Shown one piece after another: positions 41,314 through 53,388 of a DNA stretch of 54,154 nt. The translations under genes and the position numbers were made by a program. A model generated the notes under the pieces. The model was not told the DNA's origin and did not search any database. It saw only the letters and a program-made list of their open reading frames with translations. Numbering within the stretch: the stretch's first letter is position 1; each line of letters starts with the position of its first letter. Source of the stretch: Victivallaceae bacterium (GTDB taxonomy: Bacteria > Verrucomicrobiota > Lentisphaeria > Victivallales > Victivallaceae); assembly GCA_045605205.1 (NCBI GenBank), contig JAZUPO010000229.1, positions 1 to 54,154 on the forward strand. Reading direction: 5' to 3'.

Positions 41314-41830
41314 TTAATTCTTAGGAATAGTTCTCGCAAGCTCAAAACGGTTGCCGACAATGCAAATTTGCCGAACTATGCCGTTTCTTCGGAAAACACC
41401 TCCTAAAGCATAAAAATCAAAACGGAGAACGGCTTTCACCTCAAAGTAAATGTCTGTAAATTCCGATGAAATAAAAAACACATCGAAAAATAGTCGTACC
41501 GCAGTTGAGCGGTATGCTGTCAATAACACTCAGAGGCAATGAACTTTGGATCTGCCATAGCCGATTGATTGTCGGCGTTACATCAGATAAATCACTTCGG
41601 AAATAGCCATTGAGCCAGAGAATAAGATAATGTCCTCCATTGGTACCCACGAACCAAGTATAACAAGGCATCAAATCCATCCGCCGCAGTGTTACCAGTA
41701 AAGAATTTATAAATACCGAAAACATCTCATTTTCAGCCAACGGCGGCAAATAGTAAATCCCGATCAAAACTTTTCCGAAACGCTCCAGATAACGATCCGT
41801 GATCTCCATAATTCTATCAATTTTATTCAT
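41314..41830 (-). pseudogene. YagK/YfjJ / inovirus-Gp2-like protein, apparently frameshifted (129-aa plus 71-aa ORFs)
   Basis: The pattern VLIGIYYLPP..FSVFINSLL..L....YTWFVGTNGGHYLILWLNGYF....V...INRLW matches the YagK/YfjJ family (R.DL..P, Y.WV.E, HYH..l.lnG; from memory). The reading frame continues in the overlapping ORF 41314..41529. Confidence 0.4.
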
Positions 41831-41936
41831 TATTAAAGTCCTGCATTTAAAATTTTGAGCTTAAAAAGCCCTGTCAGATTTATATTATGGAGAGAAAGTA
41901 ATTGCAAAGATATATTGATAAGAGTTGATTTTTTAC

Positions 41937-41965
41937 TTGACAAAAGTGCCTGAACGGATTATATT
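41937..41965 (+). promoter_or_regulatory. Putative promoter of the DUF3791-DUF3990 cassette (TTGACA-17-TATATT)
   Basis: A perfect -35 hexamer with a 17-nt spacer, 25 nt upstream of ATG 41990. Confidence 0.5.
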
Positions 41966-41989
41966 AAATAGTGGAAAGCGAGGTGTAAA

Positions 41990-42217
41990 ATGGATGAATC
42001 TATGAATATTGATGAAATGAAAGCGGAATTTCTTTCATTTTGCATTGAGGCATATAAGACAAAACTCGGCGTTTCCGGAGCAAAAGTTGCAGAATACTTT
42101 GACGAAACCGGCACACTTGATTTCCTTTTGGAAAACTACGATTTGCTGCATACTCTGGGAAAAGAACAGCTTCTTGCGGAAATTGAACGATTTTTAAGTA
42201 AACGGGTGAACAAATGA
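41990..42217 (+). CDS. DUF3791-family small protein (putative antitoxin/partner)
   Basis: A 75-aa protein. The pattern F..FCIEAYK.....SG..V.EYF...G.LDFL..NYD.LHT.G...L..EIE is as in DUF3791 (from memory). It has a GAGGTG RBS, the promoter at 41937-41965, and overlaps the next gene by 4 nt. Confidence 0.7.
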
Positions 42218-42708
42218 AATTGTATCACGGCAGCCATATTGAGGTAAAAAATCCCAAGATCATCACTTCATCCAGAGTGGGGGATTTCGGGCGCGGATTT
42301 TATACGACCAGCAGTTTGGAGCAAGCCCGCCGCTGGGCGCAGATCCGGGCAAGGCAGGAAGAAGTTTCAGCCGGTATCGTTACAGTATTTGATGTGCCTG
42401 AACATCTTTTCACACATCCGGAACTGCAGATCAGGAACTTCGTAAAAGCCGATGATACCTGGCTGGACTTTGTTTTAGCCAACCGTAAAGATGTTGACTT
42501 TGACCACGAATTTGATCTTGTCTGCGGACCTGTTGCCAATGACCGGGTGTATATCTGCTTGAATATGCTTGAAGACGGTTTAGCTGACAGAGCAACTGTT
42601 ATTGCAAAACTGAAAACGTATGTACTTGCAGATCAGATTTTATTCCACACTGCCAAATCACTGTTGTTTCTGGAATATGCTTCAACGGAGGAAGTGCTAT
42701 GCAAGTAA
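42214..42708 (+). CDS. DUF3990-family protein (possible ADP-ribosyltransferase-fold toxin)
   Basis: A 164-aa protein starting MKLYHGS, followed by GRGFYTTSS and the C-terminal DQILFHT. This H / Y-x-S / Q-E-like arrangement is reminiscent of H-Y-E ART folds. Confidence 0.7.
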
Positions 42709-43091
42709 CGCAAGAAAACCTTTATAACCTCATTCCACCGAAAGCTGCAAAGATCACCACCATACTGCGCAACGCACGCAGCATAGCAGTAAAACAGGCA
42801 TTGCTGACCTTTTACAAATCCAAAGCATACAGATTGCTGGAAAATGAAGAAACCAAACTGTGGCACTCAAGTCCCGCCCAGATTTATGCGGAATACCTCT
42901 CCGCCCCCCAACGTTCACGGAAGAGCTATCAGAACGGTCCCGGCCGCAGTAAACTTGTGCCTTTCGCCGAACAAATCAAACTCTGGCAAGCCCAAGGAAT
43001 GACACTCCGGGAAATCGCCGCCGAATTGCAGCACTACGGCTGCCAAACCACCGCCCAGAATCTCTCACTTTTTCTGCGTAAGAAAAAGTAA
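42699..43091 (+). CDS. DUF3791-like N-domain fused to a C-terminal helix-turn-helix
   Basis: A 130-aa protein. [29 protein letters not shown] resembles second-type DUF3791 proteins. The C-terminal [31 protein letters not shown] is a resolvase/IS-type HTH. It overlaps the DUF3990 gene by 10 nt. Confidence 0.6.
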
Positions 43092-43108
43092 CAGTTCACC
43101 AATTTATT

Positions 43109-46100
43109 TTATCCGGCGATTGACGGATAGCGGTTGTAAACGTGCTCGTAGATCAGACCGGTGTACTGGTTGATGCTTTGATCATCGTAGCTTTGAGGCA
43201 GAGAAACGAACAACGAGTCGCGGATAAGATTACTGACGGCAGATCGAGTATCTTCTTTGTCCCGCCAATGGTCGAGTTCGGCTATTTTTTCTTTGACTTT
43301 GGCAAGAAGTTCAATGGAAATCTCTTTGATTTTTTTGATATCCTTGGCAGAAAGGGAGTCTTTGAAAAGCAAATCGTAGACAGAAAGCTCTTCATCGCTG
43401 GTAAAACCTTCACGGACATATCGGCGCTGCTCTGAATCAAGCTCACTGCTCAATTTCATCAAATCCATAAATGTTTTTTCTATCTTGGCTTTATCCTGTT
43501 CGCCGTTGTAGCTTTCAATGATTTCCTGATATTTTGTGTAGTAATCGATCCGTTTGGGATTGGTCGGCAGCATTGTAGAAAGCCGCTGTTCAATGAGTTC
43601 TTCGAGATCTTTCAGAAGCAGGAATTTCTTCCGTGTCTTCGCAAACTCTTTCTGCAGTAATTCAAAGTCTATCTGGCTGATATCGAAAGAACGGGGCGTA
43701 TTCCGGTCGGCAGATTCAGTGGAAACATATTCATTGACGATTCCGTGAATTTGAACCATCAGTTCCGTATTATCTGCATTTTTCCGCTTTTTCTGAAGTT
43801 CGTTAAAAATTCCATTGACAGCATCTTTTTCCTGACGCATGGAAGGAGTAATATCATTTCGGTCTAAATATTTCCACAGCCTGAAAAGTTCACTTGCCGA
43901 TGTTTGGAACTCTTTTTTGATCTCCAAAGTTTTGCATAATTCATTTGCCGCCTGCTGCAGCAAGGCGATACGTTCAAAACCGGAGGAAGCAATCAGGGCA
44001 TCCAGAGAAAAGTTGTTCTTCTGCAGGAATGTTTTGGTTGTACTTATGATTTCCTGAATTCTATGAATAAGCTCTTCTTTGTTCACCGTCGGATCAGTTC
44101 CATTGCCGTGGCCCTCTTGGGACGTATATGCAGCCAACGCTTCACGCAGAGCCTTGACAATACCGATGTAGTCAAGGATGAGCCCGTTTGTTTTCCCTTC
44201 TGCCACACGATTTGCCCGAGCGATAGTTTGCATAAGAGTGTGGGCTTTGAGAGGTTTATCCAGATAGAGGCATGAGAGAGATTTTACATCAAATCCGGTC
44301 AGCCACATAGCACAGACAAAGACCACGCGGAAAGGATTTTGGGAATCTTTGAATTCCTTATCCAGTTCCCGGGTTTCCATTTTCGTGCGGTGTGGACGGA
44401 TATCCAATCCCCAGGCGTCAAAAGTTTTGATTTCATTTTGTTCCTGACTGATGACAACAGCCATTTCGGTTTCTTTCATCCAGTTGAGCTTACGGGAAAG
44501 CTCTTGAGCTGTTTGCTGTGAAGTTTCTTTTTTGAGCTGCTGTTCAAGTTCAGAAATTTTAAGCTGCCAGTATTTTTGAACGAGATTATACATCCTGACA
44601 CAGGAAATTTTGTTCAAGCAGACATACATAGCCTTGCCGCAAGTCCACAAGTCAGAATAGTGTTCAACAAAATCCTGAGCCAGCGCCTCAAAGCGTGATT
44701 CAGCAGTCAGCAAATGGATTTCCTTTGCGAACTCCCGTTCCAGCTTTTCCTGCTGATTGGGATCTAGATCGGCGGCTTCAACAGCTTCGATAATGCGTTC
44801 AGTAATTTCGGGACTTGTGATATCCTTGAATTTCTGACCTCTGTTTTCGTAGTAAAGAGGAACGGTTGCGCCGTCATCAACAGCCCGTTTGAAGTCGTAG
44901 ATGGAAACGTAGCCGCCAAAGGTCCTTTCGGTAATGTTATCATTAGAAAGGAGAGGTGTCCCGGTAAATCCGATACGGGAGGCTGTGGGCAGTAAAGAAC
45001 ACATATTGTCGGCAAAGATACCATTTTGACTGCGGTGAGCCTCATCTGACATAATGATAATATCGTGATCAGGAATGATCGGAGTTGGATTCCCTTGATT
45101 GAATTTCTGAATCAGAGTAAAAATAAAGCTGGGATTGCCTTTAAGTTTGTTGATCAGGTCAGAGCCGCTGGAGGCAATAAAATGAGACCCCTTGACGGCT
45201 CCGAGAATACCGCAGTTTTCAAAGGTGTCGCTGATCTGTGAATTAAGCTCATCACGGTCAGTCAGAATAACAATGGTCGGAGAGCCTTCAAACTTGCGGC
45301 GGATCTTTTGAGCGAGAAAGAGCATGGAGTAACTCTTTCCGCTGCCTTGGGTATGCCAGAAAACGCCCAGTTTGCCCTCTTTGAGTTTTCTGTTTTTGTA
45401 GGCTTCGATGGCTTCATTGACACCGAGATACTGATGGTTGCGGGCAAGGATTTTGGCAGTACGACCGCCTGAATGATCGAAGAGGATAAAGTTTTCGAGC
45501 AGATCAATAAAGGTCTCTTTTTTGCAGATCCCCCGGAGCATGGTCTGCAATTCCACGCAGCCGGGATCCTGTTCTTTAAGACGTTTCCATTCGTGGAAGA
45601 ATTCGTATTTACTGCCGAGGGTTCCGACTTTTGCGTGATGTCCGTTACTCAGGATGAGAAACGCGTTGTAATAGAAGAGCTGCGGAATGGTCGCCAGATA
45701 GTCGGTATAATTGTTGGTATAGGCATCTTGCACATCCACATTAACGGCTTTGAATTCCATAAACAAAAGCGGGATACCGTTGACAAAGCCCACAATATCC
45801 GTCCGGCGGCGGTGGAGAGTACCTTGGATTTTAAGTTCTTTAATGGCGAGAAAATGGTTATTGAGTGGAGTCTGAAAATCAATGAGTTTGGCGGTGCGGG
45901 TGGAAAATTTGCCATTGGGAAGTTTGACGGAAACAGGGATGCCGTCACGGATGAGGAAATATTTTTCCTCATTGATCTGCATAAGGGAGGCAGAAGCAAG
46001 ATGAGTTTCGAGTTTCTTTTGGGCTTCATCGATCTGAGCCGGAGTAATCCAGGGATTGAACTCTTTGATTTTAAGACGGAAATATCGGGAAAGCAAGATT

Positions 46101-46246
46101 TCTCGATAACTTTTGCGTCCGAAAGTGCCATCGATACCAAGTTTTTCGGTGTTGTAGGCAAACTTGACCTCCCAACCCAACTCATTCTGGAGCAGATTTC
46201 CCGCACTTTCCTGCACCAGAATATTTTCAGAATACTCGTAACTCAT
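43109..46246 (-). CDS. hsdR: Type I restriction endonuclease subunit R
   Basis: A 1045-aa protein with an HsdR N-terminal nuclease region, SF2 helicase motifs (HTQGSGKS, MSDEAHRSQ, TGTPL, QTIARANR) and a DUF3387-like C-terminus. Confidence 0.95.
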   Translation of the reverse strand: MSYEYSENILVQESAGNLLQNELGWEVKFAYNTEKLGIDGTFGRKSYREILLSRYFRLKIKEFNPWITPAQIDEAQKKLETHLASASLMQINEEKYFLIRDGIPVSVKLPNGKFSTRTAKLIDFQTPLNNHFLAIKELKIQGTLHRRRTDIVGFVNGIPLLFMEFKAVNVDVQDAYTNNYTDYLATIPQLFYYNAFLILSNGHHAKVGTLGSKYEFFHEWKRLKEQDPGCVELQTMLRGICKKETFIDLLENFILFDHSGGRTAKILARNHQYLGVNEAIEAYKNRKLKEGKLGVFWHTQGSGKSYSMLFLAQKIRRKFEGSPTIVILTDRDELNSQISDTFENCGILGAVKGSHFIASSGSDLINKLKGNPSFIFTLIQKFNQGNPTPIIPDHDIIIMSDEAHRSQNGIFADNMCSLLPTASRIGFTGTPLLSNDNITERTFGGYVSIYDFKRAVDDGATVPLYYENRGQKFKDITSPEITERIIEAVEAADLDPNQQEKLEREFAKEIHLLTAESRFEALAQDFVEHYSDLWTCGKAMYVCLNKISCVRMYNLVQKYWQLKISELEQQLKKETSQQTAQELSRKLNWMKETEMAVVISQEQNEIKTFDAWGLDIRPHRTKMETRELDKEFKDSQNPFRVVFVCAMWLTGFDVKSLSCLYLDKPLKAHTLMQTIARANRVAEGKTNGLILDYIGIVKALREALAAYTSQEGHGNGTDPTVNKEELIHRIQEIISTTKTFLQKNNFSLDALIASSGFERIALLQQAANELCKTLEIKKEFQTSASELFRLWKYLDRNDITPSMRQEKDAVNGIFNELQKKRKNADNTELMVQIHGIVNEYVSTESADRNTPRSFDISQIDFELLQKEFAKTRKKFLLLKDLEELIEQRLSTMLPTNPKRIDYYTKYQEIIESYNGEQDKAKIEKTFMDLMKLSSELDSEQRRYVREGFTSDEELSVYDLLFKDSLSAKDIKKIKEISIELLAKVKEKIAELDHWRDKEDTRSAVSNLIRDSLFVSLPQSYDDQSINQYTGLIYEHVYNRYPSIAG
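46224..46246 (-). repeat. 23-nt direct repeat, copy A (functional hsdR 5' end, ATGAGTTACGAGTATTCTGAAAA)
   Basis: Identical at 22 of 23 positions to 47165-47187. Confidence 0.9.
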
Positions 46247-46264
46247 CTGTATTTCTCCACGTTA

Positions 46265-47152
46265 TCAAATCTCATCGGTATCGCTCTCATAATAGTAAGA
46301 GTAGTCGATGCCTTTCATAAACATTTCCCGGTCATTAATTTTATCGGTCAGAGCGACTTTCAGTAAAGTTTTCAAATCGGTACTGTTAATCACACTCTTC
46401 TGCATGGCTTCAAGATAAGCCTTTTTATTGACCAGACTCCAGTCAATACATTGTTTCAAAGAACGCTTGAGCATCAAGTCCAGCCAGATACGGGTGGAGC
46501 GTCCGTTACCTTCCATAAAGGGGTGAGCGACATTCATTTCCACATATTTGTTGATGATCTCTTCAAAAGAAGATTCCGGCATATTCTCGATATTGGGAAA
46601 AATCGTAGAAAAGTAAAGAGCATTGGCAAAGGTGAAACCGCCTTTACTGATATTTTTATCCCGGATTTGTCCGGCGAATTCATACAAGCCGCCGAAAAGA
46701 TAAGCGTGGATCTGCTGCAGACATTTTACCGTGCCGGGTTCCATAGAAGAGAGAAGACCGCTTTCAAAGAGAGCATAGGCTTTGGTACGGCTTTTGCCGT
46801 CGATGGTATCATCGCTGTAAGTGAACCATTTTATAAATTTAGCGGCATGACGGCTGGGGATATGCTCAATCAAAATGAGAATATCCTGTTGGGTAAGACA
46901 ATCAGTCAGATAGCGTTTCCCGTCAGAAGCAGTCATTTTCAGTTGACTACAATTTGTAGTCAACTCGGGGTTGGTCTTTTTCAGGCGTGATTTGAGAACG
47001 CTCCAATATTTCCGCGGATTAACGCTTTCGGTCAAAACGCCGACAATATCGGCAACCGAGAACAGCCATTGATTAGCTGAATCATCCCACGCTGCCCGAA
47101 CTTCCCGATCATTAAAAAAACGGATGGAAATTTTATTGCTCATCAATTTCAA
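46265..47152 (-). CDS. Bro-N-like DNA-binding domain fused to a Fic/DOC (Fido) domain
   Basis: The Fic motif is [12 protein letters not shown]. The N-terminal [31 protein letters not shown]...AAKFIKWF fits the Bro-N pattern. The start is TTG 47152 (TTGA overlap with the relic mini-ORF stop) or ATG 47143. Confidence 0.85.
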
Positions 47153-47164
47153 CCTTGTTTTAAT

Positions 47165-47187
47165 TTTTCAGAATACTCGTAAGTCAT
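47165..47187 (-). repeat. 23-nt direct repeat, copy B (relic hsdR 5' end, ATGACTTACGAGTATTCTGAAAA)
   Basis: Its ATG overlaps the stop of the unknown 243-aa gene (ATGA). It opens a 12-codon mini-[15 protein letters not shown], whose TGA overlaps the TTG start of the Fic gene. Confidence 0.9.
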
Positions 47188-47912
47188 AATTCATCATCCC
47201 GCAATTTGCAAATATTTTTTGTCATCATAATTTTACGCAACTTTGTTCCTAAATCAGTATATGCATAGTATGAATTGACTTTACGGGGTATGGGGATTTT
47301 TTTAGAAACCATACGCGTAGGTTCTGTTATGAAGCGATTTTTCGCTTGGTTATCCTCCGTAATTATACCAAGTCCCTCTAATCTCAACAATGGCTCAATT
47401 CCATCACTTCGCCCCTCGTATACTACAAATAAGTTTTCTGCATACATCAAATAAGTAATATCATCCGGAAGTAGTCTATCTATAATTTCTGCATATGTAG
47501 AGAACACCTGCCAATCAATATACTCAAACAAATATGCGAGGTATAATTTCGCTAACATTCTTGGTTTGTTGTAATCAAGATAGCGATCAATTAAAATCAT
47601 AATGTACTCAAGTTGTTGTTTTTGAAATTTTTCATTCTGTTGGAATTTCTCCGCATACAAGTTGCGATTATTTTCATCAAGAGAACATTTATTTAACTCA
47701 TCTAAAAAACATATTAATTTTTTTAAGTTGTGTCGCTCTTTAATGCTTTTTCCAATGCGATATATGGAAATCGCAGAAGATATAAACGGTATATCTTTTA
47801 AAATACCATCTTCAAGTAACGCATCAATTCCCAACTCCGCCGCATTAGATATGATACTTTCAAATTCTGGTGACAAACTGTCTTTTAATGACTTAGATAA
47901 ATCATTTGCCAT
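47184..47912 (-). CDS. Uncharacterised 242/243-aa protein embedded in the Type I R-M operon (no family recognised)
   Basis: The ORF starts at ATG 47912 (TGATG overlap with the hsdS stop, GGAGG 8-9 nt upstream) or at GTG 47915. GC is about 30%. It looks like a helical N-half plus a mixed C-half, with no TM helix and no catalytic motif recognised. Confidence 0.75.
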   Translation of the reverse strand: MANDLSKSLKDSLSPEFESIISNAAELGIDALLEDGILKDIPFISSAISIYRIGKSIKERHNLKKLICFLDELNKCSLDENNRNLYAEKFQQNEKFQKQQLEYIMILIDRYLDYNKPRMLAKLYLAYLFEYIDWQVFSTYAEIIDRLLPDDITYLMYAENLFVVYEGRSDGIEPLLRLEGLGIITEDNQAKNRFITEPTRMVSKKIPIPRKVNSYYAYTDLGTKLRKIMMTKNICKLRDDEL

Positions 47913-49114
47913 CACTTCACCTCCAATTCGCCGGTCATCAGCTTGGGCAATAAATTATCACGAGCCTCTTGTGTTGCATTGATACATTGTTGGGAATCAT
48001 ATATTTTTTTGAAAATGGGAGCTGTCAATTTTGAAAATGCAGATATTAAATCTGTATCTGGTAAAATAAACGGCATAGCTTTTATGATAGATGAGTTTAC
48101 TGCTTTTGAAATTGATGATGTATTACCCAATGTGTCGTACTCAAAGTTTTTAAGATATAAATATGTGTATTCCCGCATCCACTCTTCATCAATGTAAAAA
48201 TGGGCGATGGCTTCGTTTGTACAACACGGAGTTGTTGCTATAGAAACTCGTCCGAGAGTTAATTTAAAACTCAACAAAATAGTCCCGACAGGTACTTTTT
48301 TTACATTGTATTTATTTATTGAATCTGCAGTCAGACCTTCAGTAGTGAAAAAAACATAAGCGCCACTATTGCCCATATCAGAAATGGATACCCATGGGAT
48401 ACCATTATTACCATCCGTGAAACATTGGCTTTCTGAACGAGGAGGTGTTTTGCCAATGGTAATATTGAAAAAATCTATTGCTTTCCCTGTTCGCCATCCA
48501 TCGGGGATGCCGTTGACGATGGGGGTGGTTTCGTGGCCGGGGAAGCGGAGGTCGATGAACCATTCTTTATAGAGCCGCTGGGCGGCTTCTTCCAGAAGCT
48601 TGATCTGTTTCCGGTTGTTTTCAATCAAATCATCATACGCCGAAAGCATATCTGCGATTTTTTGCTGAACCTCAAGCGGCGGAAGATTGTCTACATTCAT
48701 TTCACGAATTGTCGGAAGGTTTACATGAGCCACTGTTGCTCCATTGGCGGTACCAAGCAATTTGTATTGCTGCTCCGAAGCAAGCAGATAGTAAACCAAG
48801 TAGTCCGGACAAACTTTTTCCGGATTAGGGCGAATCAAAACAGTTCTTTGCCCTAAACACATTTTTTCATTGTTTTTTATAATTGCAGCATTTCCAGCAG
48901 GTGCTTCCCGAGCAAAAATTATATCATCATTTTGCGGGATAGCTCGCGCACATCGGGCTTGATACACCTTTTCAGAAACTCGATGTACCCCTTCCAAGTT
49001 AAAACGCCCCAAGCCAATATTGGGGGTTCTGATGAGTGGAATTCCGCTTCCCTCATCCGGAGCCGTTGAGTGGGGGCAGTCAACAATAAAATGACAAATA
49101 TCTTGTAATTTCAT
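47912..49114 (-). CDS. hsdS: Type I restriction-modification specificity subunit S
   Basis: It has two target-recognition domains separated by the conserved helix LPPLEVQQKIADMLSAYDDLIENNRKQIKLLEEAAQRLYKEWF. The C-terminal conserved helix is ...QEARDNLLPKLMTGELEV. Confidence 0.92.
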   Translation of the reverse strand: MKLQDICHFIVDCPHSTAPDEGSGIPLIRTPNIGLGRFNLEGVHRVSEKVYQARCARAIPQNDDIIFAREAPAGNAAIIKNNEKMCLGQRTVLIRPNPEKVCPDYLVYYLLASEQQYKLLGTANGATVAHVNLPTIREMNVDNLPPLEVQQKIADMLSAYDDLIENNRKQIKLLEEAAQRLYKEWFIDLRFPGHETTPIVNGIPDGWRTGKAIDFFNITIGKTPPRSESQCFTDGNNGIPWVSISDMGNSGAYVFFTTEGLTADSINKYNVKKVPVGTILLSFKLTLGRVSIATTPCCTNEAIAHFYIDEEWMREYTYLYLKNFEYDTLGNTSSISKAVNSSIIKAMPFILPDTDLISAFSKLTAPIFKKIYDSQQCINATQEARDNLLPKLMTGELEVK

Positions 49115-49138
49115 TTGTTCACCTCGCGAGCTGTTTTT

Positions 49139-49167
49139 ATAAGTCTTATATGGCTCATAAGTCTTAT
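49139..49167. repeat. Two copies of the 11-bp palindrome ATAAGTCTTAT, 18 nt apart, in the four-helix-bundle/hsdS intergenic region
   Basis: The copies lie at 49139-49149 and 49157-49167. Related copies, ATAGGTCTTAT at 49470-49480 and ATAGGACTTAT at 49488-49498, lie inside the four-helix-bundle gene with the same 18-nt phasing. Confidence 0.8.
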
Positions 49168-49181
49168 TTTTACTGCCTCTC

Positions 49182-49850
49182 TCATTGTTTCCCGCCTTTC
49201 AGCAGATTTGCCGCTTCTTCGATTTTTTTAAGCAATGATTCATTGCCGTATTGAGAAACTTCCCGGTAGATTTCCCGGAGGAGTGATAAGACCTTTTCCT
49301 GTTTTGCATTACGGCTGCCTACTCTTGCATTATACATTCTTTCCCGCAAGCCGCCTTTTTCAGCGAAACTCTCTGCTAATGATTTCAGTTGCCGGTCAAG
49401 CAGATAATTGGTCTGGTGGATCAGCGAAATCATCGTGTTGCAGAAAAGCTCGGCATTGTCGGGGGCTAAATAGGTCTTATAAGTCTCATAGGACTTATTT
49501 TTTTGTTTTGCCAACTCTCTGATTTGCACGATCCGCTGATCGTTTTTATCCCACAAAGGCAACCTGTGTACTCGCAAATGATCCCGGTAATCTTCCAGCA
49601 ATTCCTCAAGACTCGCCCGGGCAACACCGATCAGTTTGATTTCGGTTTCACAACTGATCCCGGAGGCGGAACAACCTTCAATAATATTCTGTTTGCCGCT
49701 TCGTGCCGCCTGTATCATCTGATCAATAGTCCGATCACCTTTTTGCAAGTACCACTGACAAAAATTATTGGTGGCATCAAATATAACCACACTGTTCTGA
49801 TAAGACTCCAGTTCCTGATAATTGCCGTGGCTCTGGATAATTTCATTCAT
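49182..49850 (-). CDS. Four-helix-bundle protein (23S rRNA intervening-sequence-protein family) with C-terminal suffix domain
   Basis: A 222-aa protein. The pattern Y....V.IFD.T..F........RT.DQM.QAARSGKQNI.EG and its location between hsdM and hsdS fit the TIGR02436-type family (from memory). It overlaps hsdM by ATGA. Confidence 0.6.
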   Translation of the reverse strand: MNEIIQSHGNYQELESYQNSVVIFDATNNFCQWYLQKGDRTIDQMIQAARSGKQNIIEGCSASGISCETEIKLIGVARASLEELLEDYRDHLRVHRLPLWDKNDQRIVQIRELAKQKNKSYETYKTYLAPDNAELFCNTMISLIHQTNYLLDRQLKSLAESFAEKGGLRERMYNARVGSRNAKQEKVLSLLREIYREVSQYGNESLLKKIEEAANLLKGGKQ

Positions 49851-51850
49851 ATCCCCAGCTCCTTGAAGTTGGCAGAGATTTGCGCCATCAGCTCATTGGA
49901 TTGCTGTTGCAAGGTCAGCAGTTCAGCGTGGATTTCGTGCATTCTTTCGGAGAAATCCACTCCGTCATCTTTCGCTTCGGCAACTCCGACGTATGCTCCC
50001 GGAGTCAGGGACCAGTTTTTTCCTTCAACTTCGGTGCTATCCGCAATTTTACACAAACCGGGAATATCGGCATACTTGCCTTCAGTACCAAATTTGCCGG
50101 TCAGCCAGTTGGCCTCCTGCAAAATGGTGATATAGGCATTAATAAATTCTGCAGCCGCTTCGCCTCTTTGTTCCAAAGCCTTATTGAAAGCATTCAGGCG
50201 GTTGAAACCTGCATCTTTCAGTTTGTCTTTCTGTGTCGCCGGGTTGTTGGCATAGTTTGCCAACAACCCCGCAGTACACTTTTTGTGAATTTCAGCAGCT
50301 GTTTTCAATGCTTCCATTAAGGCTTCAGACTTTACCAATGTTTCCGGTGTCATCGCCAGCAGATCTTTACAGAGATGATCGATTGCACAGTCAAAGTGTC
50401 CGATACGGTCAGCATCCAACAGCTGCCGATATTCTTTGACGGCTTCTTTTATTTCTTTGGCTCCATCGTGGAACGTTTTCAGATATTCAGAGATCAGATT
50501 CTGATATTTTTCCATTTCTCCACGGTACAGCCAGACAATGGCATTTAGATTTTTCAACTGCCATTCGCTCCATTCATTGAGGGTACGGTCAACTTCGGTG
50601 TAATAGCTCCGGGCATCAATGAAAAGAATTTTTTCTTGCAGAGCTTCTGCTTTCCCTTTGTCAAAGAACCACAGCGAACAGGGGAGACTTTTGGTATAAA
50701 AGAAGTTGTTGCCCACGCTGATCATCACATCAATATGTCCGGTCTTAACCAGCTGTTCTCGAATATCTTTATCTTTGCCTTGACTGTCCGTGGCACTTGA
50801 AGCCATAACAAATCCGGCTCGGCCAACCTCATTCAAATAGGCGTAGAAATAAGAGATCCACAAGTAATTGCCATTGCCCACCTCTTTTGCTTTATTTACA
50901 CCGGGCATTCCAAAAGGCAGCCGCCCGGCAGCTTCGGCTGATTCCGCTTTGACCTTATCCACATTGAAAGGCGGGTTGGCCATCACATAGTTACATTCGC
51001 CGACCAGATTGTGTGCATCGTGATAAAAGGTATTGGCTCCGTCTCCGGAAAGGATTTTTCCGTTCAACCCGTGAACTGCCATATTCATCAGGCACAGCTG
51101 GGCATTGTATTCCACCTTTTCCTGACCGTAAAAGGTCATAGTGTTGTTGGCGACCATACCGGAGTGATTGACAAAATCTCCCGTTTGCACAAACATTCCA
51201 CCCGATCCGCAGGCAGGATCAAGCAGAATGCCGGATTTGGGTTCCAGCACATTCACGATCATTTTAACCAGTGACTTGGGCGTAAAAAACACGCCGTCAT
51301 CAGACGCGATGTTCTTGGCAAACTTATTGAGAAAATATTCATAGATCCGGCCGAAGACATCTCCGCCGATCTCATCAAGAAGATTGTTGTTGAAAATCCG
51401 CAGCAGTTCCGCAAGCAGAGCATCTGAAAACATCGTGTACTCTTTGGGCAAAACACCTTGAAGCTGTTCACTCTGCTGTTCGATCAGCTCCATGGCATTA
51501 TTGACCGCCTCACCAAGACTGTTAATAGGCAGTCCATCCTGATTGATCAGCCCGGCCTCAGCGATATTCTCTGGCAGATTCACCAGATAGGGGTATTGGG
51601 CTTCTTCCGACAGAAACAATGCGCTCTTTTCTTTGAAATCACTAGCCTCCACAGGCAATACTCTGCCATTGCGAACAGGACGATGAGCAAGAATTTCTCT
51701 TTCAACCAGTTTGAAACGGCTGTAGGCGTAGCGCAAAAAGAGCAAGCCCAGAACAGGCATACAGTACTGGTTGGAGGTAAGTTTCGATTCTGCCCGGAGC
51801 AAATCTGCGGATTCCCAGAGGTCACTCTCAAGTTTTCGGATATTGATCAT
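49847..51850 (-). CDS. hsdM: Type I restriction-modification DNA methyltransferase subunit M (long form)
   Basis: The HsdM_N helix bundle (LWESADLLRA...VLGLLFLRY), the SAM motif LDPACGSGGM, the catalytic NPPF (VMANPPFN) and the C-terminal KNWSLTPGAYVG are present. Confidence 0.95.
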   Translation of the reverse strand: MINIRKLESDLWESADLLRAESKLTSNQYCMPVLGLLFLRYAYSRFKLVEREILAHRPVRNGRVLPVEASDFKEKSALFLSEEAQYPYLVNLPENIAEAGLINQDGLPINSLGEAVNNAMELIEQQSEQLQGVLPKEYTMFSDALLAELLRIFNNNLLDEIGGDVFGRIYEYFLNKFAKNIASDDGVFFTPKSLVKMIVNVLEPKSGILLDPACGSGGMFVQTGDFVNHSGMVANNTMTFYGQEKVEYNAQLCLMNMAVHGLNGKILSGDGANTFYHDAHNLVGECNYVMANPPFNVDKVKAESAEAAGRLPFGMPGVNKAKEVGNGNYLWISYFYAYLNEVGRAGFVMASSATDSQGKDKDIREQLVKTGHIDVMISVGNNFFYTKSLPCSLWFFDKGKAEALQEKILFIDARSYYTEVDRTLNEWSEWQLKNLNAIVWLYRGEMEKYQNLISEYLKTFHDGAKEIKEAVKEYRQLLDADRIGHFDCAIDHLCKDLLAMTPETLVKSEALMEALKTAAEIHKKCTAGLLANYANNPATQKDKLKDAGFNRLNAFNKALEQRGEAAAEFINAYITILQEANWLTGKFGTEGKYADIPGLCKIADSTEVEGKNWSLTPGAYVGVAEAKDDGVDFSERMHEIHAELLTLQQQSNELMAQISANFKELGI

Positions 51851-52275: not shown

Positions 52276-52572
52276 ATGGAATGTCCAATGTGTGGCAAGA
52301 AAGCCTACGTCGTAACGCAAACCCGTGGTACGACAACGCTTCTCGGTGCAGGAGCCGGAGGTTACGCTGCTGCAGCAGGAGGTAAAACAGGAGCTGTGGT
52401 CGGCAGCTTCATCTGCCCCGGTTTCGGAACAGTGATCGGTGGTCTGCTCGGAGTGATCACAGGTGCTGCAACAGGAACAGTTGCAGGAAATACCATAGGC
52501 CGTATGATCGATGAAAACGTGATGCGTCTCTATCGTTGTGAAAGCTGCAACCACCAATGGAGGGCTGCCTGA
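52276..52572 (+). CDS. Split zinc-ribbon protein with an inserted glycine-zipper segment
   Basis: A 98-aa protein with CPMCG near the N-terminus and CESCNH near the C-terminus. These bracket GAGAGGYAAAAGGKTGAVVGSF..GFGTVIGGLLGVITGAATGTVAGNTIG, a GxxxG zipper. An AAAGGA RBS is present. Confidence 0.65.
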   Translation: MECPMCGKKAYVVTQTRGTTTLLGAGAGGYAAAAGGKTGAVVGSFICPGFGTVIGGLLGVITGAATGTVAGNTIGRMIDENVMRLYRCESCNHQWRAA

Positions 52573-52779: not shown

Positions 52780-53388
52780 ATGTCACTGAAATACCCTACA
52801 ACTTCTAAAACGCTTCTGGATAAAATCGCTTCCGGTGATGAAATCAGTTGGGATGAATTTTATCTGAAGTATGCCCCCATAGTGAAAGCTCTTGCCAAAT
52901 TCAAAGGCTTGGATGCCAATGCCGCAGATGATGTCTGTCAACAGGTTATGCTGCAGTTTTTCAAGCAGAGCAAAACTTTTAAGTTTGACCCCAATATTGC
53001 CAAGTTCAGAACCTACTTCGGCAGGATCGTTAATGCAAAAATCACGAATTATTACCGTAAAAGAGGAGAAGTCTCTTCCGATGAACCCGAAGAAATTCCT
53101 GTGGATTCTGAAGAAGGCAACCTCTTTATGAATGAATGGCGGAAAGCTGTGCTTAAAGAGGCTGAACAGGTGCTGAAACAGCGGGTTGCTCCTGAAACTT
53201 TTCAGGCTTATGAATTGTACGCCATTCAGAACCGCCCCGTCAAGAAAGTTGCTGAATATCTGGACTGTTCCGAAAATCAGGTTTATCAGGCAAAGAAGCG
53301 TTGTTTCAAGATGATGAAAGAAATCCTTTTGAAGATGAACGAGACTGATCCGGATTTGCAGTTGGAGTTGTCGAAATATGAGTTATAA
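52780..53388 (+). CDS. ECF-type sigma-70 family RNA polymerase sigma factor
   Basis: A region-2-like segment (DDVCQQVMLQFF...FRTYFGRIVNAKITNYYRKR) and a region-4 HTH (VKKVAEYLDCSENQVYQAKKRCFKMM) are present. An AAGGAG RBS is present. Confidence 0.8.
   Translation: MSLKYPTTSKTLLDKIASGDEISWDEFYLKYAPIVKALAKFKGLDANAADDVCQQVMLQFFKQSKTFKFDPNIAKFRTYFGRIVNAKITNYYRKRGEVSSDEPEEIPVDSEEGNLFMNEWRKAVLKEAEQVLKQRVAPETFQAYELYAIQNRPVKKVAEYLDCSENQVYQAKKRCFKMMKEILLKMNETDPDLQLELSKYEL

Follow-up and report, generated by a model that had tools for sequence, protein, structure and literature searches.

The window analysed here is the 54,154-nucleotide stretch of contig JAZUPO010000229.1 (positions 1 to 54,154, forward strand) of assembly GCA_045605205.1, from a Victivallaceae bacterium of the Lentisphaeria, and our subject is a compact cassette of three genes, called A, B, and C here, that lies beside a type I restriction-modification (R-M) operon (Table 1). 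The stop codon of A sits on the start codon of B at an ATGA junction (4-nt overlap), B and C overlap by 10 nt, and 17 nt (43092-43108) separate the stop codon of C from that of the convergent, 1045-residue hsdR open reading frame (ORF). No terminator was found in this 17-nt gap. The gene lengths, overlaps, and gap agree with the preliminary description of the locus, which had been made from the letters alone. Small, adjacent, co-oriented, and overlapping genes behind one promoter are the layout of a type II toxin-antitoxin (TA) system.

Table 1. Features of the cassette and of the neighbouring R-M operon, in window positions
Feature	Position	Strand	Remarks
Whole conserved cassette: promoter region and genes A, B, and C	41914-43091	+	Discrete 1,177-bp unit with sharp ends (blastn)
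Three direct TTGAYA repeats	41915-41920, 41925-41930, 41937-41942	+	Third repeat is the -35 hexamer
Sigma-70-type promoter TTGACA-17-TATATT	41937-41965	+	11/12 positions match
Gene A	41990-42217	+	75 aa, acidic (pI 4.6), DUF3791; candidate antitoxin or inhibitory subunit
Gene B	42214-42708	+	164 aa, DUF3990, predicted ADP-ribosyltransferase fold; candidate toxin/effector
Gene C	42699-43091	+	130 aa; N-terminal core and basic C-terminal tail
Gene C core, residues 1-68	42699-42902	+	PADLOC PDC-M13C, E 7e-24; obligatory third partner
Gene C tail with predicted helix-turn-helix, about residues 86-127	42954-43091	+	Sub-threshold HTH_38; lineage-specific
Type I R-M operon, convergent to the cassette	43109-51850	-	Pfam, PADLOC; outside the mobile cassette
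hsdR	43109-46246	-	1045 aa; HSDR_N, SWI2_SNF2, T1R_D3 domains
Bro-N/Fic gene	46265-47152	-	PADLOC PDC-S04, E 5e-146
243-aa protein	47184-47915	-	No PADLOC or PHROG match
hsdS	47912-49114	-
222-aa protein	49182-49850	-	Weak 23S_rRNA_IVP match only; no PADLOC or PHROG match
hsdM	49847-51850	-

The promoter proposed in the preliminary description is the best-scoring promoter-like site of the region, with a perfect -35 hexamer (TTGACA, 41937-41942) and a -10 hexamer (TATATT, 41960-41965) that matches at five of six positions. Promoter-like sites as such are not more frequent here than in shuffled sequence (6 versus 4.1 +/- 1.9). The credibility of the promoter comes from a comparison of about 24 homologous loci, in which both hexamers are kept and the 17-nt spacer is variable. 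A GAGG lies 5-6 nt upstream of the ATG of gene A. The window copy of A begins with 12 extra nucleotides (41990-42001, residues MDES), as do those of L004, L007, L016, and L018; in many other orthologues the protein has 71 aa, and its start codon, which corresponds to M5, directly follows the same ribosome-binding site. Among 16-17 orthologous copies, the ratio of nonsynonymous to synonymous substitution (dN/dS) is 0.07 for A, 0.10 for B, 0.10 for C, and 0.14 for the C tail, at a dS of about 0.8-1.0. These ratios indicate purifying selection on all three genes and on the C tail as well.

Protein B is the centre of the cassette, and its family is clear. It matches Pfam DUF3990 (PF13151) at 137.9 bits (cut-off 32.2; E 2.7e-40), its residues 1-154 covering profile positions 1-151 of 152, and it matches the PADLOC model PDC-M13B with an E value of 9.9e-53. 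DUF3990 is among the members of the Pfam ADP-ribosyltransferase (ART) clan (PMC7955679), a grouping that the preliminary description had suggested and that the clan listing bears out. Sequence searches of the PDB with A, B, and C (phmmer and profile) returned chance matches only, and PHROGs and NCBIfam added nothing for any of the three.

The fold of B was approached with AlphaFold2. From an alignment of 101 cluster representatives, 30-50% identical, we obtained a model with a predicted local distance difference test (pLDDT) score of 96.3. A single-sequence run gave an all-helical model with a pLDDT of 41.6, which is meaningless and was discarded. With the alignment-based model as query, Foldseek retrieved ART-fold proteins from the PDB almost exclusively: 19 of the 20 best matches are ART-superfamily proteins by name. 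The best is the RES toxin 6gw6_A (E 5.5e-3, probability 0.99, TM scores 0.49/0.55), and the others include PARP2, PARP3, the rifampin ADP-ribosyltransferase Arr, a PE-like toxin, ExoA, cholera and LT toxins, Tpt1, and PARP10. In BFVD, an unnamed protein comes first (E 1e-11), ahead of ART-PolyVal proteins (E 1e-5) and a PARP-like protein from an iridovirus. Some DUF3990 homologues also give sub-threshold Pfam matches to ART-PolyVal over the H-G-S...G-F-Y region. The preliminary description had looked to structure prediction for a comparison with ART folds, and on the evidence of this model B very probably folds as an ADP-ribosyltransferase.

Several residues of B are strongly conserved. Among the 101 homologues, H5 and G6 are each kept in 98, S7 in 81, and D110 in 95, and D24, Y30, R91, D101, and G105 are invariant (101/101). 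Position 141 is Gln in 100 of 101, Arg in one, and never Glu. All of these residues are intact in the window copy, where the DQILFHT segment and the other motifs read in the preliminary description are likewise present. In the predicted structure, H5-G6-S7 lies on strand β1 (residues 2-7), Y30 on β2 (29-32), and Q141 on β5 (140-144). B thus has the strand 1 His and the strand 2 Tyr of H-Y-E-clade ARTs and lacks the strand 5 catalytic Glu. It is reasonable to place H5, Y30, and Q141 of the model at the positions of the H-Y-E triad of PARP-like ARTs, giving an H-Y-Q signature. The H-Y-[E/Q] core suggested earlier is in this sense only partly upheld: its three positions are near-invariant and sit on the predicted strands, but the third residue is never Glu, and classical ART catalysis is therefore not assured. 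We consider it likely that B binds NAD+.

The two partners of B belong to different families. Protein A is a member of Pfam DUF3791 (PF12668; 66 bits against a cut-off of 25, E 3e-18) and matches PADLOC PDC-M13A (E 1.9e-19). Protein C has no Pfam match above threshold; its core carries the motif AL..FY.S..Y..LE.E.TK.W with invariant A34, Y39, Y44, L47, E50, T52, K53, and W55. Both flanking proteins had been described as DUF3791-like, which holds for A and not for C. BLASTP of C against A gave no match, and iterated searches (jackhmmer) keep the two families apart. Alignment of the two profiles with hhalign gave a P value of 4.7e-4 and a probability of 32% in one run and 0.024 and 2% in a second, in the same register, and sub-threshold DUF3791 matches occur in four of 21 C-family members (best E 0.0078), the window C having none. 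With BLASTP, jackhmmer, hhalign, and Pfam all below threshold, we rejected C as a DUF3791 protein. Its sequence is that of a separate family for which remote homology to DUF3791 is possible.

Protein C is basic (pI 10), as is its tail (pI 10.5). Of the 12 members with a tail, 11 give a sub-threshold match to HTH_38 there, the best with an E value of 5e-4 and the window copy with 0.038. The DNA-binding helix-turn-helix (HTH) attributed to C in the preliminary description corresponds to these sub-threshold matches; it is confined to the Victivallales copies and is no general feature of the system, being absent from the majority of C proteins. Exactly the clade whose C has the tail also has, upstream, three direct repeats of GTTGAYA at spacings of 10 and 12 nt, and cassettes whose C has no tail have no triple repeats upstream. 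The most divergent member, L025, has a divergent tail together with three copies of GTAGAYA in place of GTTGAYA. A search for inverted-repeat operators around the promoter gave nothing better than weak, long-range pairs. Because the HTH tail and the triple repeats occur only together, the tail could be an autoregulatory DNA-binding domain with the repeats as its candidate operator, an assignment to which we give an even chance.

Genes A, B, and C co-occur in every sampled locus of the trio type. Diverse contexts were gathered from plasmids, from viral contigs with a degenerate DNA pattern for DFGxGFYTT, and from contigs encoding the cluster representatives; a locus scan with the single window protein returned only close relatives, and a viral-contig scan with the window protein gave no match. 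The hosts of the trio include Lentisphaerota, Clostridium, Bacteroidales, spirochaetes, Lachnospiraceae, and Planctomycetota, along with unassigned metagenomic contigs and IMG/VR contigs, and the gene orders seen are A-B-C, B-C-A, and a C·A fusion followed by B. These C·A fusions, of 149-155 aa, lie upstream of DUF3990 on Bacteroides/Phocaeicola plasmids and one viral contig (L002:3555-4004, L003:3537-4004, and L065:6443-6892). B·C fusions of 228-243 aa are found as three cluster representatives (P0180, P0161, and P0231), the first two each on 2-3 independent contigs. The strict three-way co-occurrence, together with fusions that join C to A and B to C, points to a physical complex of A, B, and C.

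DUF3990 is also found in other settings. It occurs on about 23 IMG/VR contigs, alone or at the C terminus of 550-900-aa proteins. The solo viral forms (about 195-235 aa, with no A or C) are those of L040, L042, L047, L050, L053, L055, L057, L058, and L060, several of them on contigs of 90-200 kb. In L048, L049, and L062, a DUF3990-like domain ends a protein of 551-901 aa with no A or C nearby, and the domain of L049 matches both DUF3990 and ART-PolyVal over the same region. In cellular bacteria, DUF3990 has been described in the variable C-terminal toxin position of Rhs effectors of type VI secretion systems (T6SS) in Serratia and Enterobacter (PMC4524185, PMC10763514), and in the toxin position of an Rhs effector also in PMC12165300.

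The cassette behaves as a discrete mobile unit. More than 20 loci in metagenome-assembled genomes (MAGs) of gut Victivallaceae/Lentisphaeria, to which the window is most similar, carry it at 66-84% nucleotide identity, about 80% in most (blastn). In most of these loci, similarity begins at 41914/41915 and ends at 43088-43092, and the flanks outside these limits are unrelated. In a set of 159 flank proteins from about 28 loci, there are 150 distinct clusters. A second copy is present in some MAGs. The two sides also reassort independently of each other, each of two left flanks being paired with each of two right ones among the MAGs. The window combines a left-hand reading frame that we call up129 with hsdR on its right. 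L020 shares up129 and differs on the right, L016 shares hsdR and differs on the left, and L014 carries the alternative flank on both sides. We saw no transposase, integrase, or terminal repeats at the cassette ends. The cassette may serve as portable homology for recombination.

The reading frame up129 (129 aa, 41441-41830, minus strand) is itself part of a second discrete module of about 380 bp, with nucleotide similarity over 41508-41896, and has no match in Pfam, PADLOC, NCBIfam, or PHROGs. Its place varies: it adjoins the trio on the left in the window, L018, and L020 and on the right in L005, L011, L013, L015, and L021; in L012 it is inverted and separated from the trio by about 4 kb. These positions suggest either cassettes that shuffle in arrays or a recurrent companion gene.

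At larger scale, 2,400 clusters at 50% identity match B at E <= 1e-3, and 82 plasmids carry the module, of which 28 are conjugative and nine mobilizable. Plasmid hosts include Clostridium botulinum, C. tetani, and Bacteroides fragilis. On C. botulinum plasmids of 17-23 kb the module is beside rep, on B. fragilis pBF9343 it is beside a zeta toxin, and a Phocaeicola plasmid of only 7.6 kb also carries it. In Victivallaceae the trio is mostly chromosomal and multi-copy and lies away from transfer or virion genes. Horizontal mobility and a patchy distribution that includes plasmids are further traits of type II TA systems.

The preliminary description had placed the cassette in a defence island, and here the result is mixed. 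The adjacent operon is indeed a type I R-M system with three embedded genes, namely those for a Bro-N/Fic protein and for the 222-aa and 243-aa proteins, and the adjacent A, B, and C match the hidden Markov models (HMMs) PDC-M13A, PDC-M13B, and PDC-M13C, respectively, so that on HMM matches the trio is a PDC-M13 system. The PDC systems are 145 untested "guilt-by-embedding" candidates, proposed on the ground that homologues lie inside BREX, DISARM, or type I R-M operons (Payne et al. 2024, 10.1101/2024.01.29.577857); the main text of this preprint by Payne, Hughes, Fineran, and Jackson contains neither the name PDC-M13 nor a mention of ADP-ribosylation. In a survey of rumen MAGs, PDC-M13 was among the most frequent calls, with 3,324 (PMC13356809). 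Textbook embedding is seen in a Treponema MAG (L028:5103-12022), in which hsdM, hsdS, A, B, C, and hsdR follow one another on one strand. A different convergent hsdR and a HATPase_c_3 protein lie near the trio in L004, an NgoFVII-type type II R-M system in L068, and a Fic gene with an HsdM fragment in L067. In L077 (1068-4333), a B·C fusion adjoins an EcoRI-type methylase, a GmrSD_N/HNH protein (type IV restriction-like), and a phage-type integrase, a neighbourhood that looks like a small defence island or mobile element. The R-M neighbour of the window is shared only by L016, where the hsdS is different (32% identity). Other copies of the cassette are beside AcrB, PheRS, phosphofructokinase, or enolase, and the association with defence genes is that of a minority of loci.

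Beyond the R-M operon, the window contains a 98-aa reading frame (52276-52572, plus strand) whose ends carry CxxC...CxxC and whose middle is rich in glycine (GAGAGGYAAAAGGKTGAVVGS...). A short way downstream of it is a gene for an ECF-type sigma-70 factor (52780-53388, plus strand; Sigma70_r2 and r4_2 domains), and the 98-aa protein may be a small membrane or zinc-ribbon partner of this sigma factor.

Taking these observations together, we lean slightly toward reading the cassette as a self-contained, mobile, tripartite TA or abortive-infection module built around an NAD-dependent toxin. The single sigma-70-type promoter would produce one A-B-C transcript, and the 4-nt and 10-nt overlaps would couple translation of the three genes. 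With its computed ART fold, B would bind NAD+ through a PARP/Arr-like signature, Y-H-G-S on strand 1 and G-F-Y-T-T on strand 2, the near-invariant Gln of strand 5 standing at the place of the classical catalytic Glu. As the effector, it would use NAD+ to modify a macromolecule, or would destroy NAD+, and thereby arrest the cell. The acidic DUF3791 protein A and C would bind B and keep it inactive, and we think it somewhat probable that both do neutralise B. In the Victivallales, C would have gained its basic HTH tail and probably represses the operon through the three GTTGAYA repeats, which overlap the -35 hexamer. Phage infection or loss of the element might then free B. The result might be abortive infection, which would back up the adjacent R-M system, or, from a plasmid, post-segregational killing. 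An anti-phage role of the cassette is plausible, although we hold it with less than even confidence.

Several observations weigh against this proposal. The structural matches of B in the PDB are weak, none having an E value below 1e-3, with TM scores of about 0.5. B is itself mildly acidic, with a pI of 5.7. With Gln at position 141, B could be devoid of classical transferase activity, or could use D24, D101, D110, and R91 instead. The covalent joining of B to C is at odds with C as a simple labile antitoxin, the HTH match in the tail of C is below the Pfam threshold, and about 10 DUF3990 proteins on phage contigs have no A or C partner. When 101 flank proteins from about 28 loci were searched with PADLOC, defence families made up a minority only (three type I restriction endonucleases and two each for other families, in a tally without a matched control set), and most sampled loci have housekeeping or unannotated neighbours. 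According to the published CmdT correction, the ART effector of that tripartite system is not highly toxic when made by itself (PMC11445053). Finally, our literature search found no functional study of DUF3990, DUF3791, or PDC-M13, in line with the earlier remark that no experimental function was known for this pair of families.

Three other explanations have to be weighed against a TA or abortive-infection module. The cassette could be an offensive or counter-defence device of mobile elements, with B modifying a target in the host or a competitor (nucleic acids, RNA polymerase, or proteins of R-M and other defences, for example) to the advantage of the plasmid, ICE, or phage on which it resides, much as phage Alt/Mod and ART-PolyVal are thought to act, and with A and C as specificity, targeting, or chaperone subunits rather than antitoxins. 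The phage ART-PolyVal proteins are the closest named structural relatives of B, and the double match of L049, the DUF3990 domains on IMG/VR contigs, and the conjugative and mobilizable plasmids would all suit such a role. The Victivallaceae trio, however, is mostly chromosomal, multi-copy, and not beside transfer or virion genes, and same-orientation embedding in R-M operons suits a host-defence gene better than an anti-defence gene. The solo and large phage forms of DUF3990 have neither A nor C, as would follow from a role of these two proteins in shielding the producer from B, and small non-mobilizable plasmids carry the module next to rep, the usual place of an addiction module. We regard the offensive reading as unlikely. 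A quite improbable alternative is that B is an inactive pseudo-ART that binds a ligand or protein (for example as a sensor of NAD+, ADP-ribose, or a phage protein), the trio being a regulatory or sensor complex whose output passes through DNA-binding C or an unlinked effector. The Gln at the catalytic Glu position in nearly all homologues, the only moderate structural similarity to active ARTs, and the basic C with an HTH in the Victivallales clade would fit this idea. The near-invariance of H5-G6-S7, D24-F-G-x-G-F-Y30, R91, D101, G105, and D110 across homologues of about 35% identity is, however, typical of an active site, DUF3990 occupies the toxin slot of Rhs effectors, and C proteins mostly have no HTH. 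ARTs can also be active without the Glu: the mono-ART PARPs have H-Y-I/L, Arr has an Asp, and Tpt1 has no acidic third residue.

The remaining explanation leaves the mechanism of the TA module as proposed and changes its purpose. The module would serve selfish maintenance only, by addiction to a plasmid or island or by stabilisation of an R-M locus, and the R-M neighbourhood would be the coincidence of a "genomic sink". The 82 plasmids, many of them small, the positions beside rep genes and a zeta toxin, and the non-defence neighbours of most chromosomal copies are what such an element would show, and PDC/HEC systems associate less with other defence systems than do classical ones (Payne et al. 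2024, 10.1101/2024.01.29.577857). Set against this, the cassette has inserted independently beside or inside at least four different R-M systems among about 30 contexts, which by a rough estimate is far above what a random gene would give. The two roles are also not exclusive, as many TA modules first taken as addiction systems also abort phage infection. Maintenance as the sole function is, in our estimation, rather improbable.

A more specific version of the TA proposal can be offered tentatively, as one that is unlikely to hold in full. The cassette would be a three-subunit immune or addiction system in which A and C, both small helical proteins, form a composite inhibitor or sensor around an ART-fold enzyme with Gln in place of Glu, a phage trigger displaces A and C, and, where the cassette lies in or beside an R-M operon, the system backs up that operon once restriction has been evaded. 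The enzyme would perform non-classical NAD+ chemistry; by analogy, it might be a transferase that acts on a phosphate or nucleic-acid acceptor, like Tpt1 or DarT, or might cleave NAD+, like RES.

The DUF3990 trio is very common in gut and rumen anaerobes. It should come as no surprise to specialists, because its ART-clan membership and its status as a defence candidate are already on record. If B is an active NAD+-dependent toxin, however, the trio would be a new ART-based TA or defence family with an unusual H-Y-Q active site and two-protein control, and possibly with a new target of ADP-ribosylation. The analysis provides handles in the form of residues for mutation, co-expression with both partners, fusions that hint at a physical complex, and a candidate operator.

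How the cassette relates to known systems can be considered from two sides, the family to which its proteins belong and the systems whose architecture it shares. With PADLOC PDC-M13 it has strong matches of all three HMMs in common, and its type I R-M neighbour is the setting that defined the PDC systems. It differs in being adjacent and convergent to hsdR rather than embedded, and in the lineage-specific HTH tail of C. With the Rhs/T6SS toxins (Serratia Rhs5 and Enterobacter RhsA), B shares the DUF3990 domain itself, there in the toxin position and followed by a small presumed immunity gene; those proteins, however, are secreted effectors fused to Rhs/PAAR delivery modules, and the toxicity of DUF3990 in them is presumed. 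ART-PolyVal (PF18760) provides the closest named relatives among viral models (E 1e-5) and sub-threshold sequence matches, and some DUF3990 domains, like those of ART-PolyVal, are C-terminal in large phage proteins. The two are separate Pfam families, however, and the ART-PolyVal domains are parts of giant injected effectors without a DUF3791 or C partner, whereas B is a stand-alone protein of 164 aa.

Among TA systems, RES-Xre (Pseudomonas putida, PDB 6gw6; Mycobacterium tuberculosis MbcTA, PMC6436930) includes the best PDB match of B and likewise pairs a small ART-fold toxin with a small partner, on plasmids as well as chromosomes; the Victivallales C also joins a toxin-associated domain and a predicted HTH. 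The signature of the cassette is, however, H-Y-Q and not R-E-S, its partners are DUF3791 and the C family and not Xre/COG5642, and it has three components instead of two. Membership in RES-Xre was rejected, there being no RES or Xre/HTH_3 Pfam match and a similarity to 6gw6_A at the level of the fold only. The CmdTAC tripartite systems (PMC11618068) have in common with the cassette three co-transcribed genes, an ART-fold effector, a phage-defence context, and two non-enzymatic partners, features that are predicted for the cassette. Its A and C, however, are helical proteins of 70-85 aa from families of their own, and the ARTs are unrelated at the family level; we rejected CmdTAC membership, as Pfam and NCBIfam reveal no SecB-like chaperone or ChAD-type antitoxin in A or C. 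DarTG and ParST also place an ART-fold toxin in a TA or defence module, and here too membership was rejected, with no DarT or Macro match in A, B, or C and no DUF2384/Xre partner. As there is no macrodomain or ParS-type partner, neutralisation of B would be by binding and not by reversal of a modification. In its proposed action, the cassette is most like the ART-toxin TA systems (RES-Xre, ParST, DarTG, and CmdTAC), and by its domains it is a member of none of them; it belongs to DUF3990 and PDC-M13.

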